Virus record (IMG/VR): IMGVR_UViG_2585427782_000007
Source of the DNA: a virus
Lineage: Duplodnaviria > Heunggongvirae > Uroviricota > Caudoviricetes
Length of the DNA stretch: 14,205 bases
Strand: one strand, 5' to 3'
Part shown: piece after piece, positions 1,925 through 13,138 of the stretch
Position numbering within the stretch: the stretch's first letter is position 1
Layout: the number at the start of each line of letters is the position of its first letter
The notes under the pieces: model-generated
What the model was told of the DNA's origin: nothing
Databases searched by the model: none
Seen by the model: the letters and a program-made list of their open reading frames with translations, nothing else
Position numbers and translations under genes: made by a program

Positions 1925-2072
1925 ATACAGCGAACTCCATTGGTTTAGTTGGATATTTACTGTGCTGGACAAAAACGGTTTGCGGGGAAATCTTAGTTAA
2001 GTAGAATGACTGCGGGTGCTTGAGGCTATCTGCCTCGGGCATGGACACCAACGGCAGATAGAGAAAAGCCCC

Positions 2073-3921
2073 AGTTAACATTACGCGTCCTGCAAGACGC
2101 TTAACATTAATCTGAGGCCAATTTCATGCTAGACACATGTAGGTTAGCCTCTTACGTGCCGAAAGGCACGGAGAAGCAGGCTATTGTTAACACCAAGCTG
2201 TAATGTCCCCTTTGAACCATTCTAAAATGTCCCCAGACAATTCTCTGGGGGATTTTTCATGATCAAAGAGACTGTTACGATGAGTCATAAGGAACTCCAC
2301 CGACTTCAGATTATTCAGGAACAAGCTGCGGCACGCATTGGCATTTCTATTCGGCAGGTTAAACGTCTGGTGCAACGGTATAGAAATGAAGGGCCTTCTG
2401 GTCTGGTTTCCCACCGACGTGGAAAGCGTCCTAATAATTCCTTTTCTACTGAATTCAGAGCAACAGTAATTTCACTCCTCAAAGGCCGTTACGCTGATTT
2501 TGGACCTACGTTTGCGTGCGAAAAATTGCGCGAGATACACGGTTTATCTTTATCCGTTGAAACTCTCAGAAAGTGGATGATAGAAGAGGGGTTATGGCGT
2601 GAACGCCGTCGTAAAATTGCCCGTATATATCAACGCCGCATGCGACGACCATCTTACGGTGAACTGATCCAGATTGATGGCTCACCTCATGACTGGTTTG
2701 AAAATCGAGGCCCCAGATGTACACTGATCGTTTTCATTGATGATGCCACCAGTGCGTTGATGGCGTTGCGTTTTGTGCCTGCTGAAACAACCCGGGCTTA
2801 CATGGAAACCCTCCGGGGTTACCTTAATGATCATGGCGTACCGCTCGCTCTCTACTCTGATAGACACAGTATATTCAGGGTAAATAACCCAGAGCGGGAA
2901 GGTGAGCTGACCCAGTTCACTCGTGCGATAAAGACACTGGGCATCGAGCCAATCCATGCCAACAGCCCGCAGGCAAAAGGGCGGGTAGAGCGCGCCAATC
3001 AGACACTACAGGACAGGCTGGTCAAAGAAATGCGGCTTCAGAATATCAGTGATATTGAAACAGCAAATGCATGGTTGCCGACCTTTATTGAAGCCTATAA
3101 CAACCGGTTCGCTACGTCGCCTCGTACTACTGATAATGCTCATCTTGATGTGCACCATTCTGAAGAGGAACTGGGTTATATCTTCAGCCTACAGGCGAAG
3201 CGCGTTCTGTCTAAAAATCTCACTTTCCAGTACAAAAGCAGTGCGTTTCAGGTACGCAGTGAGGGCCGGGGATATCGACTTAGGCATTCGGTTGTTACTG
3301 TATGCGAGAACTTTGACGGTGAAATTAACGTTCTGTATGACGGGAAAGCGCTGGGCTGGGAAAAGTATGTTGATGGCCCGGAGCCTATACCACTGGATGA
3401 TGAAAAGAGTGTCCATGAACGAGTGGATAATGCCCGTATTGATTTACGCTCAAAATACTATGTTAAACCTAAAGCTGACCATCCCTGGCTTACGCGCCGA
3501 ACGCAAAGTCATCAGCAAGTTAAGCCCCCGAAGTTACCTAAAAAGAAGCCTGATCCCGATAAAAAAGATTGAAACCAAGATCGATTCGGTTGAGTGCATA
3601 TCCATTCATAGGGTAGATTCTTAAGTCGCGTTTCTGGTGTTCATTTTCGGGTGGTTTGTTACTTGTTTTACCGGGGATATGCCAGAAACGCGCTGAGTCA
3701 GTCTGGGCGGTGCGCGTAATGAGGCGTTATGGTAAATAGCCTATGCTAATGTCCGCTAAGAGCAAGAAGCGGAAGTTGGCAGTTTTGTGGACTGTCCCCA
3801 CAAAAGTGACTACAGAAATAGTTGCAATTCATAATTGATCATGGGTTGTCAGTTAAACTCGTGGCGATTTAAATAGACTAATTGGGAGTGCGTCCATTAC
3901 TTATATCTTGTAATGTTAACT
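2073..3921 (+). mobile_element. Putative insertion sequence carrying the DDE transposase; boundaries tentative
   Basis: Single transposase ORF 2259..3572 flanked by an exact 12-bp inverted pair: AGTTAACATTAC at 2073-2084 and GTAATGTTAACT at 3910-3921. No similarity beyond the 12 bp and no flanking direct repeat, so the ends are uncertain. Confidence 0.3.
2259..3572 (+). CDS. DDE-type transposase with N-terminal helix-turn-helix (retroviral-integrase-like core; IS481/ISNCY-like, family not resolved)
   Basis: 437-aa ORF. N-terminal HTH-like segment (AARIGISIRQVKRLVQRY), then candidate catalytic residues in VFIDDATS, LYSDRHSIF and GRVERANQTLQDRL. GGGGGA precedes ATG 2259. Confidence 0.85.
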   Translation: MIKETVTMSHKELHRLQIIQEQAAARIGISIRQVKRLVQRYRNEGPSGLVSHRRGKRPNNSFSTEFRATVISLLKGRYADFGPTFACEKLREIHGLSLSVETLRKWMIEEGLWRERRRKIARIYQRRMRRPSYGELIQIDGSPHDWFENRGPRCTLIVFIDDATSALMALRFVPAETTRAYMETLRGYLNDHGVPLALYSDRHSIFRVNNPEREGELTQFTRAIKTLGIEPIHANSPQAKGRVERANQTLQDRLVKEMRLQNISDIETANAWLPTFIEAYNNRFATSPRTTDNAHLDVHHSEEELGYIFSLQAKRVLSKNLTFQYKSSAFQVRSEGRGYRLRHSVVTVCENFDGEINVLYDGKALGWEKYVDGPEPIPLDDEKSVHERVDNARIDLRSKYYVKPKADHPWLTRRTQSHQQVKPPKLPKKKPDPDKKD

Positions 3922-7504: not shown

Positions 7505-8257
7505 ATGAACCTTGAAGCCTTACCAAAATATTACTCCCCAAAATCTCCAAAATTGAGCGATGACGCTCCAGCGACAGGCACCGGTTGTTTAACAATTACG
7601 GATGTAATGGCAGCGCAGGGGATGGTGCAGTCGAAAGCACCACTTGGGTTGGCCTTATTTCTGGCAAAAGTTGGTGTTCAGGACCCTCAGTTTGCGATTG
7701 AAGGCCTGCTAAATTACGCGATGGCACTGGATAACCCGACATTGAACAAATTGAGTGAAGAAATCCGGTTACAGATTATTCCTTACCTCGTGAGTTTTGC
7801 CTTTGCTGATTACTCCAGGTCTGCGGCAAGTAAGGCTCGCTGTGAGCATTGTTCAGGTACGGGATTTTATAATGTATTGCGCGAAGTGGTGAAACACTAC
7901 AGACGCGGGGAATCTGTAATCAAGGAAGAATGGGTGAAGGAACTATGTCAGCATTGCCATGGTAAGGGCGAAGCCAGCACAGCGTGCAGAGGGTGTAAGG
8001 GTAAAGGGATTGTTCTGGATGAAAAAAGAACCCGGTTTCATGGCGTACCGGTATATAAGATTTGTGGGCGTTGTAATGGAAACCGGTTTAGTCGTTTACC
8101 GACCACGCTGGCACGACGTCATGTCCAGAAGCTGGTACCAGACCTGACCGATTATCAGTGGTATAAGGGGTATGCGGACGTCATTGGTAAACTGGTAACA
8201 AAGTGCTGGCAGGAAGAAGCATACGCGGAAGCGCAATTGAGGAAGGTGACGAGATAA
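7505..8257 (+). CDS. quuQ: Q-type late antiterminator QuuQ (250 aa) with four DnaJ-like CxxCxGxG repeats
   Basis: ATG 7505 preceded by GGAG at 7493-7496 (MNLEALPKYYSPKSPK...). Repeats CEHCSGTG, CQHCHGKG, CRGCKGKG, CGRCNGN. Sits directly upstream of a promoter plus short terminator, as for lambdoid Q. Confidence 0.85.
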   Translation: MNLEALPKYYSPKSPKLSDDAPATGTGCLTITDVMAAQGMVQSKAPLGLALFLAKVGVQDPQFAIEGLLNYAMALDNPTLNKLSEEIRLQIIPYLVSFAFADYSRSAASKARCEHCSGTGFYNVLREVVKHYRRGESVIKEEWVKELCQHCHGKGEASTACRGCKGKGIVLDEKRTRFHGVPVYKICGRCNGNRFSRLPTTLARRHVQKLVPDLTDYQWYKGYADVIGKLVTKCWQEEAYAEAQLRKVTR

Positions 8258-8678: not shown

Positions 8679-8891
8679 TCATGAAAGGTAAACATTGGCA
8701 GCTGAAGGGCCACGCAGACCATTTATCCGGCAAAATTCCACGCGTAATCCGGTGGTAATTTCTTCTGCATCGCGGAGATTGAGCGCTGAAACATGAAGCT
8801 GGACATCGATACGACCATCGGATGGGGTGATAAGACCCTTGCCGCTTTTGCCGTCAAAGGTTTTGACAATTCCTGTCATTTTACGGGACAA
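8679..8891 (-). CDS. cspF: Cold-shock protein family member CspF (70 aa)
   Basis: [70 protein letters not shown]; divergent from cspB as in Qin. Confidence 0.9.
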
Positions 8892-9191
8892 AAAAATTCC
8901 TTAATACTGATAACTTGGCGCACTATACACACGTTCCTGAAGAAAGCTATAGTTTTTTGATGGGGTTGAAGATGGCTGGATGTCTAAAATAAACATTGCT
9001 TCATATGTTCAACTATGCGTTAATGATTGCGTCGGTTTGAAGAACAGACGATATACGAAGTAGTTTACTAAAGCAGTTCTCATTTCAGGTGTTATTCACT
9101 TATTCCTTCTTTGAGTCTCTCCAATTAAGTACGAAGTCGTTTCTGTTATGCAAACCATTTATGCCGAAAGGCTCAAGTTAAGGAATGTAGA

Positions 9192-9407
9192 ATGTCAAAT
9201 AAAATGACTGGTTTAGTAAAATGGTTTAACGCTGATAAAGGTTTCGGCTTTATTTCTCCTGTTGATGGTAGTAAAGATGTGTTTGTGCATTTTTCTGCGA
9301 TTCAGAATGATAATTATCGAACCTTATTTGAAGGTCAAAAGGTTACCTTCTCTATAGAGAGTGGTGCTAAAGGTCCTGCAGCAGCAAATGTCATCATTAC
9401 TGATTAA
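9192..9407 (+). CDS. cspB: Cold-shock protein CspB (71 aa)
   Basis: [71 protein letters not shown]; SD AAGGAA; roughly 300-bp upstream region typical of csp leaders. Confidence 0.9.
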
Positions 9408-9688
9408 AATTCATCGCTCGTCTGTATACGATAACGAAGAAGGCTGATGCCTGAGTAGAGATACGGACAGAGTAGTGAATATTGGATCTCTTTAATAAAA
9501 AGTAAGGAGGTCCAATACATGAAACAATGGCTAGCATATTTGGCAAAATCTTAATCAGGAAAAGTATGCTAACCATTGTGGTGAAGTGCAGGTTTGCTGC
9601 ATGAATAGTTTTACAGCAGAAGCTAACTGCTGGCATGGCAAAACAAAGTGCGTAAGTGGATGACTCCCACAAAAAGCACCACAATCTC

Positions 9689-9712
9689 AAACCCGCTCAG
9701 GCGGGTTTTTTA
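9689..9712 (+). terminator. Rho-independent terminator about 280 nt downstream of cspB
   Basis: AAACCCGC-TCAG-GCGGGTTT hairpin followed by TTTTTTATT. No terminator is visible directly after the cspB stop. Confidence 0.55.
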
Positions 9713-9770
9713 TTATCTGCTTTAAATATATTATTAAAATATAAAAAATACTTGTTACTAATAAAATCAA

Positions 9771-9941
9771 TCAGGCTACAGCTTTAAGATTTGTCTGGAA
9801 TACTTTGTTGCAATGAGGGCAGATCAAAAGGGCACCTTTTTGTACTCTTGAAAAACTGTGTTCTGACTCTTGGGTGCAGTTTGGGCAGGAACATTTAACG
9901 AGATAATTACGGCGTGATTTTGAGTTTTTACGTTCTGACAT
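9771..9941 (-). CDS. Small zinc-ribbon protein (56 aa), function unknown
   Basis: Internal Met of table ORF 9771..9992 with AGGAAAAG SD: MSERKNSKSRRNYLVKCSCPNCTQESEHSFSRVQKGALLICPHCNKVFQTNLKAVA. Two CxxC pairs 18 residues apart. May correspond to a small zinc-binding Qin protein, but I cannot confirm this. Confidence 0.5.
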   Translation of the reverse strand: MSERKNSKSRRNYLVKCSCPNCTQESEHSFSRVQKGALLICPHCNKVFQTNLKAVA

Positions 9942-10160
9942 AGGCTTTTCCTGTATAAATGGCCGTATACAGTACACTAAATATGAAAACATTTCTCGTA
10001 TTATTATTTTATATATGACTTTCTTTCAAAATAATTACCCACATTTTTAATGTGTATGTTTTTTTAGCGCCGTTGAGAACAACGTGTGCTGTCAAAACTA
10101 CCCCGTAGACTCCGATCTTTTCAAACATATTGCACCATCCGTGTACATCGGGGTGAGGAT

Positions 10161-10376
10161 ATGAAATCAATGGATAAGTTAACAACAGGTGTTGCCTATG
10201 GCACATCGGCGGGGAATGCTGGTTTCTGGGCATTGCAGTTACTCGATAAAGTAACTCCGTCACAGTGGGCTGCAATCGGTGTGCTGGGTAGCCTGGTTTT
10301 TGGCCTGCTGACGTATCTGACAAATCTTTATTTCAAGATTAAAGAAGACAGGCGTAAGGCTGCGAGAGGAGAGTAA
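10161..10376 (+). CDS. essQ: Class II holin / pinholin EssQ (71 aa), phage 21 S-like with dual-start motif
   Basis: ATG 10161 preceded by GGTGAGGA: [71 protein letters not shown]. Met1 and Met4 suggest an antiholin/holin pair; two TM segments. Confidence 0.85.
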
Positions 10377-10380
10377 TCCA

Positions 10381-10688
10381 ATGACTCAAGACTATGAACT
10401 GGTTGTGAAAGGAGTCCGTAATTTTGAGAATAAAGTTACGGTAACTGTAGCCTTACAGGACAAAGAACGCTTTGACGGTGAAATTTTTGACCTGGATGTC
10501 GCCATGGACCGTGTTGAAGGAGCTGCGCTGGAGTTTTATGAGGCAGCAGCCAGAAGGAGCGTCCGGCAAGTCTTCCTGGAAGTAGCAGAAAAATTGTCAG
10601 AAAAAGTTGAGTCTTATCTGCAGCATCAGTACTCCTTTAAGATTGAAAATCCTGCCAATAAGCACGAGCGTCCTCATCATAAATATCT

Positions 10689-10692
<4 letters not shown>
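10381..10692 (+). CDS. ydfR: YdfR (DUF1327-like) acidic protein of unknown function, inside the lysis cassette
   Basis: 103-aa table ORF; starts 5 nt after the essQ stop and its stop overlaps the rrrQ start (ATGA at 10689-10692). Confidence 0.85.
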
Positions 10693-11716
<1,024 letters not shown>

Positions 11717-12078: not shown

Positions 12079-12291
12079 ATGTCTAACAAAATGACTGGTT
12101 TAGTGAAATGGTTTAACCCTGAAAAAGGTTTTGGTTTCATCACGCCGAAAGATGGCAGCAAAGATGTGTTTGTCCATTTCTCAGCAATTCAGAGCAACGA
12201 TTTCAAAACATTAACTGAGAATCAGGAAGTTGAATTTGGTATTGAGAACGGACCTAAAGGTCCTGCCGCTGTTCATGTAGTGGCGCTTTGA
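12079..12291 (+). CDS. cspI: Cold-shock protein CspI (70 aa)
   Basis: [70 protein letters not shown]; about 360-bp AT-rich upstream leader. Confidence 0.9.
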
Positions 12292-12322
12292 GGTAGACAA
12301 TATTACAAACCATATTCACTTT

Positions 12323-12490
12323 AGATGCCCGTGTTGTCATGGTTCCCAGTATAGAACATCATCTTTTGATGTTTCTGACATGAATCCTTTCGGGGCAAAA
12401 TGTATCTTTTGTAAATCAATGATGATTACATTTGATAATATTTCACAATACTTAAATGCCAGCCGTCTGTCGTTGGATTTAAAAAAGTGA
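12323..12490 (+). pseudogene. Degenerate zinc-ribbon ORF lacking an in-frame canonical start before its first Cys pair (candidate decayed paralogue of 9771..9941)
   Basis: Frame reads ...HFRCPCCHGSQYRTSSFDVSDMNPFGAKCIFCKSMMITFDNISQYLNASRLSLDLKK, stop 12488-12490. First in-frame ATG is at 12380, after the first Cys cluster. Confidence 0.25.
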
Positions 12491-12495
12491 AAATG

Positions 12496-12518
12496 AAGGC
12501 TCCTTCGGGAGCTTTTTT
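12496..12518 (+). terminator. Rho-independent terminator about 200 nt downstream of cspI
   Basis: AAGGCTCC-TTCG-GGAGCTT hairpin followed by TTTTTTG. Confidence 0.55.
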
Positions 12519-12562
12519 GCTTGGTGTCTATTCGATGGATACTCACATACTACGGTAACATC

Positions 12563-12793
12563 ATGAAAAAAATCATAGTTTTTTTTAACTCTGAACCAGC
12601 AGTGGTAGTGCCAGCGATGACTGGAGTTAACACCATCATGCGTGAATATCCAAATGGCGAAAAAACACACCTTACTGTAATGGCCGCAGGGTTTCCATCT
12701 CTGACCGGAGATCATAAAGTCATTTATGTAGCCGCGGATCGACATGTTACTTCAGAAGAAATTCTGGAAGCAGCAATAAGGCTCTTGAGTTGA
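12563..12793 (+). CDS. YnfN-like small protein (76 aa from ATG 12563; 51 aa from ATG 12638, which has a GGAG SD)
   Basis: Table ORF 12521..12793; position between cspI and gnsB matches ynfN in Qin from memory, and the 51-aa internal start matches the length I recall for YnfN. Confidence 0.5.
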   Translation: MKKIIVFFNSEPAVVVPAMTGVNTIMREYPNGEKTHLTVMAAGFPSLTGDHKVIYVAADRHVTSEEILEAAIRLLS

Positions 12794-12961
12794 TTTGATG
12801 CTATTGCATTGATAATTCAGGAAAATTCTCTTTGTCTGTTTGTGTAAAATTTAGACTATCGTATGTTGATTATTGCGATGTTTCATCTTATCTTTTACAC
12901 GTTTGCACCATATAATCGACTTACTGTGTAACTGGAAAGTCATAACAGACTAAAAGAGGAA

Positions 12962-13138
12962 ATGATGAATATTGAAAACTTAAAAACAAAAGCAGAAGCA
13001 GATATTTCTGAATATATAACAAAAAAAATTATTGAACTTAAGAAAAAGACCGGGAAAGAAGTTACCAGTATTCAGTTTACCGCACGGGAAAAAATGACGG
13101 GTCTTGAAAGCTATGATGTCAAGATTAATTTAATCTGA
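12962..13138 (+). CDS. gnsB: GnsB (Gns family small protein, 57-58 aa)
   Basis: Below the table cutoff; read manually: MMNIENLKTKAEADISEYITKKIIELKKKTGKEVTSIQFTAREKMTGLESYDVKINLI, stop TGA 13136-13138, SD AGAGGA. Tandem ATGs at 12962 and 12965. Confidence 0.8.
   Translation: MMNIENLKTKAEADISEYITKKIIELKKKTGKEVTSIQFTAREKMTGLESYDVKINLI

Follow-up and report, generated by a model that had tools for sequence, protein, structure and literature searches.

The small prophage protein YnfU, very probably a zinc ribbon, keeps company with cold-shock genes rather than phage lysis genes

The window analyzed here, the whole stretch of 14,205 nucleotides from a virus record, matches the Escherichia coli K-12 record at 99.86% identity across 10.8 kb and represents a Qin-type prophage. 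Within it, a 56-codon open reading frame is situated between cspB and the holin gene, on the strand opposite to both (Table 1). The frame occupies a moron-like place, with the Q gene on one side and the lysis genes on the other, and stands outside the late operon; no tRNA genes were found between Q and the lysis genes. Its translated product, MSERKNSKSRRNYLVKCSCPNCTQESEHSFSRVQKGALLICPHCNKVFQTNLKAVA, contains the cysteine pairs CPNC (residues 19–22) and CPHC (residues 41–44), with exactly 18 residues between them, and a fifth cysteine at residue 17. An earlier, sequence-only reading of this DNA had described an ORF of this size, with these two pairs at this spacing, with its own Shine–Dalgarno sequence, flanked by cspB and the holin gene and running against the late operon; the ORF, its translation and the annotation bear out that description in full.

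Table 1. Features of the window around ynfU
Feature	Position	Strand	Remarks
quuQ/ydfT (Q antiterminator gene)	7505–8257	+	annotation, ORF list
cspF	8679–8891	−	third member of the ynfU-cspB-cspF triad; annotation
cspA thermoregulator RF01766	9031–9423		Rfam match
cspB	9192–9407	+	convergent neighbor of ynfU; annotation
GC-rich hairpin AAACCCGC-TCAG-GCGGGTTT	9689–9718		T-run on + strand, A-run before; terminator scan
ynfU CDS	9771–9941	−	56 aa + stop; very probably a C4 zinc-ribbon protein; RefSeq "putative zinc-binding protein YnfU", WP_211180497.1
Shine–Dalgarno AGGA	9949–9952	−	7 nt before ATG at 9941–9939
Proposed −10 hexamer TACTGT	9969–9974	−	TAtgGT in most genera; inferred from conservation
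Conserved block GAGAAA	9992–9997	−	(G/A)AGC(T/A)A in other genera; 17 nt upstream of proposed −10, at the −35 position
Alternative distal sigma-70-like promoter TTGAAA-18-AATAAT	10000–10029	−	consensus scan, 10/12 matches; good only in Escherichia
Holin essQ/essD	10161–10376	+	divergent from ynfU; annotation, ORF list
Lysis cassette essQ-ydfR-rrrQ-rzpQ	10161–11716		essQ is the first gene
YmcF-like gene (RefSeq label ynfQ)	12302–12490		adjoins cspI

This frame is, with practical certainty, the gene ynfU (b4776) from a Qin-type lambdoid prophage of E. coli. The K-12 protein is 100% identical to that of the window (tblastn, K-12 locus), and the K-12 gene occupies the same place in Qin, between cspB and essD/essQ; it is the same gene, with no difference. 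The 1.55-kb region around it agrees at 99.9% identity with E. coli records that carry the ynfU annotation. Both curated family models are matched well above their cutoffs, PF23499 with 107.3 bits (E = 3.5e-31; Pfam cutoff 27) and NF038384 with 79.4 bits (E = 1.1e-22; NCBIfam cutoff 36), which establishes membership of the YnfU family, and the layout of a stand-alone 56-residue protein whose two CPxC knuckles are separated by 18 residues is that of the family as well. As the gene is already named, annotated in RefSeq and endowed with Pfam and NCBIfam families of its own, neither the gene nor the sequence-only reading's observation of it is new.

The literature further establishes ynfU as a real, translated gene, whose product is a 56-residue cytosolic protein. 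YnfU was discovered by Ribo-RET followed by tagging and western blotting, in a study that remarked on its two CPXC zinc knuckles, the same two that the window protein carries, and in which the level of the tagged protein was the highest among the newly found small proteins (10.1101/511675). Complete Ribo-seq coverage with a TIS peak (10.1101/2021.06.08.447495) and detection by PIRT-seq (PMC12350097) complete the translation signal. Since ordinary K-12 cultures at 37 °C, in which the cryptic Qin prophage was uninduced, contained tagged YnfU (10.1101/511675), production of the protein is not strictly cold-dependent. In the way of functional or expression data on ynfU, we found in the literature only its detection and the zinc-knuckle remark; a silver-nanoparticle evolution study contains one intergenic ynfU/cspB polymorphism, at a frequency of 0.28 in one population, which is uninformative.

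The comparison of leaders delimits the gene and suggests how it is transcribed. In the aligned leaders of 37 orthologues the pentamer CAGGA is invariant. A longer, 73-residue frame beginning at an ATG at 9992 was considered and rejected, because many orthologues have an in-frame stop 4–14 codons upstream and because the conserved upstream block does not keep its frame, lying in frames 0, 1 and 2 in 37, 20 and 7 loci, respectively. The proposed −10 hexamer predicts a transcription start near 9962–9964 and a leader of about 22 nt. The G-T-A-n-n-G-T columns of this −10-like block are invariant across genera in the leader alignment, the same block stands upstream of distant members from Hafnia, Cronobacter and the Citrobacter paralogue, and at the matching place Yersinia shows an extended −10 of canonical form (TGgTAGAAT). 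The GAGAAA block is a poor fit to TTGACA and may represent either a non-consensus −35 element or an activator site. The evidence for the alternative distal promoter is weak, as sigma-70-like sites show no excess in the region (4 observed vs. 3.4 expected from shuffles).

On the other side of the gene, the hairpin lying 63 nt past the ynfU stop is a candidate bidirectional terminator common to the convergent cspB and ynfU. Similar AAAACCCGC...GCGGGTTTT hairpins occur 65–80 nt past ynfU in Citrobacter and Klebsiella loci, and a crude scan located a terminator-like hairpin in only 34 of 77 loci. The −10-like block, the block at the −35 position and the Shine–Dalgarno sequence accompany ynfU in all contexts, and the gene is, on these sequence grounds, probably transcribed independently as its own unit. 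An RNA structure or thermometer in the leader was also entertained and set aside: RNAalifold returned no consensus pair for the 37 leaders, and the hairpins that the eye picks out in single species are out of register between species. In and around ynfU, Rfam at gathering thresholds reported only cspA thermoregulators and sok, and in E-value mode only weak terminator-like matches.

Among 30 close homologues, C19, P20, C22, C41, P42 and C44 are invariant together with the SEHSF, R, QKG and L residues, so that the inter-knuckle motif SEHSF-R-QKG is kept throughout; among 48 members spanning Yersinia to Escherichia, C19, P20 and C22 remain invariant and C41, P42 and C44 are present in at least 90%. 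The cysteine pairs that the sequence-only reading had singled out are thus kept across homologous loci over the range of the family, the Enterobacterales. With a median dN/dS of 0.12 and codon-position entropies of 0.59, 0.30 and 1.18 for the first, second and third positions, the third being the highest, ynfU is under strong purifying selection at the amino-acid level; these values, the family scores and the invariant cysteines go well beyond what chance would give. The protein is basic (pI 9.6, net charge +6.6), with six Lys or Arg residues among the first 16, and this basic N-terminal tail belongs to the Escherichia/Klebsiella/Enterobacter clade and is not kept in distant clades. The C-terminus that follows the second CxxC (NKVFQTNLKAVA) is variable in the family, reading, for example, STLFKSSQRL or GNIYLPSESK.

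An AF2 model (mean pLDDT 72.7) places four short strands at residues 14–18, 25–29, 38–40 and 47–49, and YnfU is very probably a C4 zinc ribbon in which two knuckles sit on beta-hairpins within a small sheet. The best matches among PDB and viral structures are all small zinc ribbons, none of them significant, and structure and profile searches together point to a generic zinc ribbon only. The Pfam match that recurs most, in 33 of the 48 members though always sub-threshold, is to the zinc ribbon at the N-terminus of PhnA/YjdM (PF08274; P. aeruginosa PA0128, PDB 2AKL), which is also a PDB profile match to the family at E = 0.087; a likeness by threading had been noted in the discovery paper (10.1101/511675). 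Both proteins are C4 ribbons with CPxC knuckles, but PhnA/YjdM possesses a C-terminal domain that YnfU is without, the inter-knuckle SEHSFSRVQKG is absent from it in the profile alignment, and the score of 22.4 bits falls below the Pfam cutoff of 30.8, so that YnfU was not assigned to PF08274. The top Foldseek PDB matches are archaeal ribosome-bound zinc fingers (M. acetivorans 9znf_BV and 9o17_AZ; HVO_2753-like 6ydh and 9fhl_C), with 35–39 aligned columns, 25–34% identity and Foldseek probabilities of 0.75–0.91; these are stand-alone C4 ribbons of 50–60 residues, similar to YnfU in size. Closer at hand are the cysteine-rich YmcF-like proteins (PF23641), which at about 60 residues share the CxxC...CxxC layout and whose genes adjoin ynfU in Kluyvera, Atlantibacter and C. 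amalonaticus; one of them, ynfQ, lies beside a csp gene in the same prophage as ynfU. Kinship between the two was rejected, as an hhalign probability of 7.8% leaves them not detectably related.

A csp gene lies within 1.2 kb of ynfU in 49 of 74 species-representative loci, in 11 different arrangements, and none lies nearby in the other 25, nor in the Yersinia and Serratia loci; the ynfU-cspB-cspF triad recurs in 18 of the 74, including non-phage loci of Raoultella, Klebsiella and Kluyvera, all of these counts being inflated by shared ancestry. The most constant neighbor across genera is cspB, and genes for YnfN-like, YmcF-like, GnsB and Hsp20 proteins recur. In Kluyvera the genes are contiguous, with ynfN and ymcF pointing one way, ynfU the other, then cspB facing ynfU and cspF oriented like ynfU; Qin has the same order and orientation, interrupted by cspI and the lysis cassette. 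Among the called neighbors of ynfU in Yersinia, Hafnia, Serratia, Citrobacter, Cronobacter and Erwinia there are no phage genes, and in Klebsiella and Raoultella the nearby ORFs match the acetoin (bud) operon in length, order and N-terminal sequence, as read from cluster representatives. Most ynfU homologues therefore occupy non-phage chromosomal sites, and the gene goes with genes of the cold-shock family, the phage lysis genes being no regular companions; the linkage to the csp cluster is likely genuine. Of the sequence-only reading's account, the moron-like location past quuQ/ydfT and ahead of the lysis genes, on the other strand, stands; against the suggested role as a phage transcription factor or an inhibitor of host enzymes, the gene context speaks. 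Members of this neighborhood have been linked to cold and to prolonged stationary phase: YnfR is cold-induced (PMC6001520), expression of cspB, cspF, cspI, ynfN and ydfK increases jointly in long-term stationary phase, and cspB and cspI mutants are at a disadvantage in cold growth and in competition during that phase (PMC7406224).

Taken together, we lean toward the reading that YnfU is an independently transcribed zinc-ribbon binding module of a cold/stationary-phase stress gene cluster, borne by phages as a moron. Cys19, Cys22, Cys41 and Cys44, by their invariance, most likely ligate a single Zn2+, around which the chain would fold as a ribbon. The ribbon would present an invariant inter-knuckle surface composed of S26-E-H-S-F30, R32, Q34-K-G36 and L39, joined in the Escherichia/Klebsiella/Enterobacter clade by the basic tail. 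Catalytic features are absent from YnfU, so that its most likely mode of action is to bind something larger, which may be RNA or the ribosome, or a protein. Its context points to ynfU as a host-physiology gene rather than a phage gene and suggests a link to cold or stationary-phase adaptation. The cluster of cold-shock and stationary-phase genes appears mobile and has two arms, one of cspF, cspB and ynfU, the other of cspI, the YmcF-like ynfQ, ynfR, ynfN and gnsB; Qin-type phages bear it as morons flanking the lysis cassette, and other enterobacteria have it in the chromosome, without phage genes. That the function belongs specifically to RNA or ribosome biology in the cold or in stationary phase is a tentative suggestion.

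Alternatively, YnfU may be a prophage zinc-finger factor of transcription or translation, or an inhibitor of a host enzyme, that acts on the late or lysis region, a role of the kind that the sequence-only reading had suggested. P2 Ogr, Mu Com and the gyrase inhibitor YacG would be analogues, and the position is suggestive: ynfU lies between the Q gene and the holin gene, divergent from the latter, not only in Qin but also in the active phages HannyBb, Tritos, 2H10, PhiR42_1 and PhiR63_1, HannyBb having the same layout around it as Qin. (The tiny ORFs annotated in HannyBb proved to be ordinary cspF/cspB DNA, 96.6% identical to the window.) Moreover, since Klebsiella phage ST13-OXA48phi12.4, without any csp gene there, has a homologue of 59% identity that diverges from its holin gene, a role in the late region retains some plausibility. 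However, ynfU is carried by just 8 of 50,697 phage records, YnfU matches no PHROG or PADLOC family, and most of the 74 species loci, as well as all the distant clades examined, are non-phage chromosomal. The protein is expressed in K-12 with Qin cryptic and uninduced (10.1101/511675), and the promoter-like block is the same in and outside phages. A phage-specific regulator is accordingly the less likely of the two, and we regard it as unlikely in its own right.

Two further proposals concern the protein. The first holds that YnfU is a DNL-type zinc finger, like Tim15/Zim17/Hep1, that escorts or modulates an Hsp70-family chaperone such as DnaK. Yeast Tim15 (2e2z_A) is indeed the best PDB-sequence match of the family profile (E = 0.0066), in an alignment that spans both CxxC pairs and the invariant H28, K35-G36 and L39, it ranks second in Foldseek (E = 0.22, prob 0.85), and a few ynfU loci have an Hsp20 gene close by. 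Such E-values are nevertheless marginal for a 35-residue cysteine-rich match. The Pfam model of these domains (PF05180, zf-DNL) gives 13.5 bits (E = 0.074) against a cutoff of 27 and was rejected; it stands outside the 25 families most matched by the 48 members, among which generic zinc ribbons are found; and what follows the second CxxC varies within the family and is without the HLIADNLG-type motif that DNL proteins have there. The escort proteins themselves are eukaryotic organellar proteins of about 100–170 residues, as compared to the 56 of YnfU, and we consider this assignment very improbable. The second proposal, a zinc buffer or metallochaperone that stores or delivers Zn2+ with no macromolecular partner, would suit a C4 site in a very small and fairly abundant protein, and the E. 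coli leader contains GAAATGTT, which resembles half a Zur box. This half-site is not conserved in other genera in the leader alignment, a single structural zinc in a chain of 56 residues is what a scaffold, not a store, typically has, and the SEHSF-R-QKG surface, invariant although it holds no ligands, implies that the partner is a specific one, all of which make a mere zinc store highly improbable.

It is scarcely credible that the transcription unit matters over the protein, with a convergent promoter and terminator, set between cspB (or the late promoter) and the lysis genes, as an insulator or a source of antisense interference against leaky lysis-gene expression in the lysogen: the orientation against the late operon, the strong hairpin terminator between cspB and ynfU, and the habit of morons to bring along a promoter and terminator would all suit it, but the amino-acid-level purifying selection (dN/dS 0.12, invariant cysteines) and the retention of ynfU at chromosomal sites with no lysis genes to insulate argue against it.

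Returning to the stress-cluster module, a more specific version would have YnfU as a dedicated zinc-ribbon RNA- or ribosome-binding partner of CspB, CspF and CspI, and ynfN-ymcF-(cspI)-ynfU-cspB-cspF as a mobile island for survival in the cold or in stationary phase, which lambdoid phages carry around their lysis cassette and which chromosomes retain once the phage is gone, or had before it came. We offer this elaboration as speculation and hold it to be rather doubtful.

As the re-discovery of a catalogued gene, the locus by itself changes little. YnfU is, nevertheless, among the better-expressed E. coli small proteins without an assigned function, and the comparative results supply testable leads: the linkage, in many genera, of a stress gene of host type to cold-shock-domain genes, a promoter-like block kept from Hafnia, Cronobacter and Erwinia to Escherichia, and the observation that the cold-shock genes flanking the Qin lysis cassette stand together, uninterrupted, in other bacteria. 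Should RNA or ribosomes prove to be a joint target of YnfU and the Csp proteins, YnfU would constitute an extra component of cold and stationary-phase adaptation and would illustrate the carriage of such modules by phages.

The 56-codon gene that the sequence-only reading had flagged as a small zinc-ribbon gene is ynfU, which is already known as a named gene with curated families and published detection. Everything in that description is present in the sequence: the reading frame, the cysteine pairs CPNC (residues 19–22) and CPHC (residues 41–44) spaced 18 residues apart, a Shine–Dalgarno sequence (AGGA, 7 nt 5′ of the ATG), and a position between cspB (9192–9407, +) and the holin gene (10161–10376, +), opposite in strand to both. 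The surrounding 1.55 kb shares 99.9% identity with E. coli chromosomes whose Qin prophage carries this ORF, annotated as ynfU (“putative zinc-binding protein YnfU”), between cspB and essD/essQ. The window matches a K-12 record at 99.86% identity across 10.8 kb, and its YnfU protein, identical to that of K-12, hits the dedicated families PF23499 in Pfam (E = 3.5e-31) and NF038384 in NCBIfam (E = 1.1e-22). The gene is accessory in E. coli, present in 1649 of 5426 complete genomes and nearly always in single copy. A longer 73-aa frame was rejected by orthologue comparison as not real, with in-frame stops common upstream and a conserved upstream block that keeps no frame.

Translation is likewise documented. 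Weaver et al. discovered ynfU by ribosome profiling of stalled initiation complexes and then tagged it; of the new small proteins in their study it reached the highest level, and they also remarked on its paired CPXC zinc knuckles and on a match to PA0128 obtained by threading (10.1101/511675). YnfU was detected again by PIRT-seq (PMC12350097), and RiboReport gives full Ribo-seq coverage. The literature that mentions ynfU gives no function for YnfU.

Features in and around ynfU and elsewhere in the window
Feature	Position	Strand	Remarks
ynfU ORF	9771-9941	-	56 codons, translation MSERKNSKSRRNYLVKCSCPNCTQESEHSFSRVQKGALLICPHCNKVFQTNLKAVA
Proposed ynfU -10 hexamer TACTGT (TAnnGT)	9974-9969	-	inferred from conservation
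Conserved block in -35 position	9997-9992	-	17 nt 5′ of proposed -10; cross-genus conservation
Whole upstream block (G/A)AGC(T/A)AT-N16/17-TAnnGT	9942-10000	-	
Alternative distal promoter TTGAAA-18-AATAAT	10029-10000	-	consensus scan; good only in Escherichia
GC-rich hairpin with flanking A- and T-runs	9689-9718		63 nt past ynfU stop, 280 nt past cspB
cspB 3′ element	9519-9686	+	about 165 nt; ends at the hairpin
Mini-ORF MKQWLAYLAKS	9519-9554	+	perfect TAAGGAGGT 7 nt upstream; 9503-9554 with SD-like sequence
Second mini-ORF	9566-9604	+	MLTIVVKCRFAA
Small Cys-rich gene (ynfQ)	12302-12490	+	62 aa, CPCC...CxxC; just 3′ of cspI
Rfam sok antitoxin match	2014-2185	+	104 bits; well upstream of hokD position
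437-aa ORF	2259-3572	+	adjoins sok match; HTH and rve_3 (transposase/integrase-like) domains

Gene context bears directly on whether YnfU is a phage-directed regulator or inhibitor, a role we consider unlikely. A Klebsiella phage carries a 59% homologue divergent from the holin and free of csp genes, as such a role would have it; against this, ynfU occurs in just 8 of 50,697 phage records, has no family in PHROG or PADLOC, and elsewhere lies among chromosomal genes. Five of these records are Qin-type Escherichia phages with the entire quuQ-cspF-cspB-ynfU-lysis region, the others being a RefSeq duplicate of 2H10, the Klebsiella phage and PHB10. A single scan of 185,579 species genomes yielded 74 ynfU loci, all from Enterobacteriaceae bar a few evidently mis-binned or contaminated records. 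The ynfU loci that almost match Escherichia or Enterobacter sequence but lie in assemblies named Veillonella parvula, Vagococcus sp., Kocuria sabuli and Bacillota (L004, L025, L035, L037) most likely reflect contamination or mis-binned contigs of public genomes. Outside Escherichia, Shigella and some Citrobacter, no Qin-type lysis genes accompany ynfU, save for a weak lysozyme-like hit in Superficieibacter and, in one Yokenella locus, a lysozyme gene some 1.6 kb off. On our own reading of ORF cluster representatives, ynfU appears to lie beside acetoin (bud) operon genes in Klebsiella and Raoultella, beside fli genes in Kosakonia and beside ABC-transporter genes in Atlantibacter; among loci of the wider family, fli genes (Pfam) adjoin in Erwinia, dsbB in Yersinia, icd in Serratia and mgtS-dcp at the Citrobacter paralogue.

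The constant companion of ynfU is a csp gene, found within 1.2 kb in 49 of the 74 loci and in 11 different arrangements, of which the Qin arrangement ynfU→ ←cspB cspF→ is the most frequent (18 loci); the Hafnia and Cronobacter family loci likewise have a CSD gene within 1–2 kb. A YnfN-like 76-aa protein (14 loci), YmcF-like proteins, GnsB and Hsp20 also recur. The order in Kluyvera is ynfN← ymcF← ynfU→ ←cspB cspF→ and in Phytobacter ynfN← cspI← ynfU→; Qin has exactly the Kluyvera order and orientation, with cspI and essQ-ydfR-rrrQ-rzpQ intervening between ymcF (ynfQ) and ynfU. From these gene orders, the cold-shock genes flanking the Qin lysis cassette (cspF, cspB and ynfU on one side; cspI, YmcF-like ynfQ, ynfR, ynfN and gnsB on the other) form one cluster elsewhere, both sets being contiguous in the same order and orientation at non-phage chromosomal sites of other genera (window 8679–9941 and 12079–13138 compared with Kluyvera L046 and L059, 4397–6195, and L050, L051 and L053, 3834–5171). 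Judging by gene order, the cluster seems either to have gained the cassette by insertion or to have lost it by deletion; phages may have acquired the cluster, or the chromosomal clusters may be leftovers of decayed prophages. Genes of this cluster are stress genes under common regulation: cold induces YnfR (PMC6001520), AZT co-induces cspI, ynfQ and ynfN (PMC11228462), and cspB, cspF, cspI, ynfN and ydfK rise jointly in long-term stationary phase, during which cspB and cspI contribute to fitness (PMC7406224).

Two further regions of the window deserve mention. The small Cys-rich product encoded 3′ of cspI matches Pfam YmcF-like PF23641 (E = 6.9e-32) and is unrelated to YnfU (hhalign probability 7.8%). 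RefSeq calls its gene ynfQ, “cold-shock protein”, a name also given to a different 37-aa ORF near ydfK (PMC6001520), so that the nomenclature is inconsistent. At the left end, where the sok match and the 437-aa ORF lie, the K-12 alignment begins only at 3388.

Profile and structure searches bore out the proposed zinc ribbon as a prediction, with no significant fold match in the PDB. The AlphaFold2 model built on the family alignment has four strands and resembles a zinc ribbon (mean pLDDT 72.7); its best Foldseek matches in the PDB, none significant, are small zinc-finger proteins seen on archaeal ribosomes (E = 0.18–0.3) and yeast Tim15 (E = 0.22). Tim15, ahead of L44e and PA0128, is also the top match of the family profile among PDB sequences (E = 0.0066), which would suit a Tim15-like Hsp70 escort; zf-DNL membership falls under the Pfam cutoff, however, and only generic zinc ribbons recur in a scan of all 48 family members (PhnA/YjdM in 33), leaving that role very improbable. 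For these reasons YnfU is classed simply as a C4 zinc ribbon, with no closer assignment. That it serves as a zinc buffer seems less credible still.

Median dN/dS over 68 species-representative orthologues is 0.12 and the entropy at codon positions 1, 2 and 3 is 0.59, 0.30 and 1.18, which at the sequence level marks a real gene under selection. Thirty close homologues keep all four cysteines, as the earlier reading required of a genuine ribbon, within an invariant set of C19, P20, C22, C41, P42 and C44 and further K5, L14, S26, E27, H28, S29, F30, R32, Q34, K35, G36 and L39. The low dN/dS and the invariant cysteines speak against the locus being a pure transcriptional insulator, the reading to which we give least credence. 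Profile search of 1.84 billion representatives and an indexed search add family members from Hafnia, Serratia, Yersinia, Erwinia, Brenneria, Providencia, Cronobacter and Mangrovibacter, as well as a second clade, of paralogues, in Citrobacter, Klebsiella, Raoultella and Kluyvera. These proteins are all 53–58 aa long, and the common core of the family reads (V/I)xCPxCxxxSxHSxx(R/K)(V/I)xKxxxL(I/V)CPxCxxx(F/Y); a basic N-terminal tail (6 K/R among the first 16 residues, pI 9.6) is specific to the YnfU clade proper.

Some 70 nt 5′ of the ATG are conserved between genera, in the order (G/A)AGC(T/A)AT, 16–17 nt, G-TA-n-n-G-T, 6–7 nt, CC, CAGGA, 7 nt, ATG. The same promoter-like block precedes the distant members of Hafnia, Cronobacter and Erwinia and the Citrobacter paralogue, whose gene surroundings differ widely; in the Yersinia member a canonical extended −10, TGgTAGAAT, occupies the equivalent position. 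In this comparison (L078, L086, L089, L090, L076) the block is kept in clades whose proteins are only 30–40% identical. We read TAnnGT as the putative −10, giving a leader of about 22 nt that shows no consensus RNA structure; the block 5′ of it may serve as a −35 that departs from consensus or as a site for an activator. To our knowledge it resembles neither TTGACA nor any sigma-factor consensus, and it may point to an activator. The GC-rich hairpin, with comparable hairpins 3′ of ynfU in Citrobacter and Klebsiella, could be a candidate terminator for both convergent genes, ynfU and cspB.

By nhmmer (E down to 4e-44), the conserved, structured non-coding element 3′ of cspB recurs at that site in Escherichia, Citrobacter, Kluyvera, Superficieibacter, Scandinavium and Yokenella, as it does in a record submitted as phage PHB10; in Yokenella it goes with cspB, not ynfU. 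RNAalifold predicts 29 pairs in five helices, with 91% of cells paired versus 29–57% when partners are slid and 10 pairs changed on both sides, values that 0 of 500 shuffles attain; many one-sided changes produce G-U, in agreement with the + strand. It has no Rfam family, and could be a cspB 3′UTR element or a 3′UTR-derived sRNA. Its two mini-ORFs, the first of them preceded by a strong SD-like sequence, are probably non-coding, since neither ATG is conserved among the other aligned genera.

The comparative points on ynfU do not appear in the papers that mention it and are an incremental addition to them. YnfU is translated and conserved, with four invariant cysteines in two knuckles, an invariant polar/basic surface between them and a predicted ribbon fold, and its gene carries a conserved promoter-like block and an SD of its own and is persistently linked to csp genes. 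YnfU would bind one structural Zn2+ and, there being no room for catalysis, would act through binding of a larger partner. Taken as a whole, we regard as reasonably probable a structural-zinc binding module that is csp-linked and expressed from its own transcription unit; more tentatively, its partner may belong to the RNA/translation sphere in which Csp proteins act, the likeliest candidate, or be a protein of that stress response.
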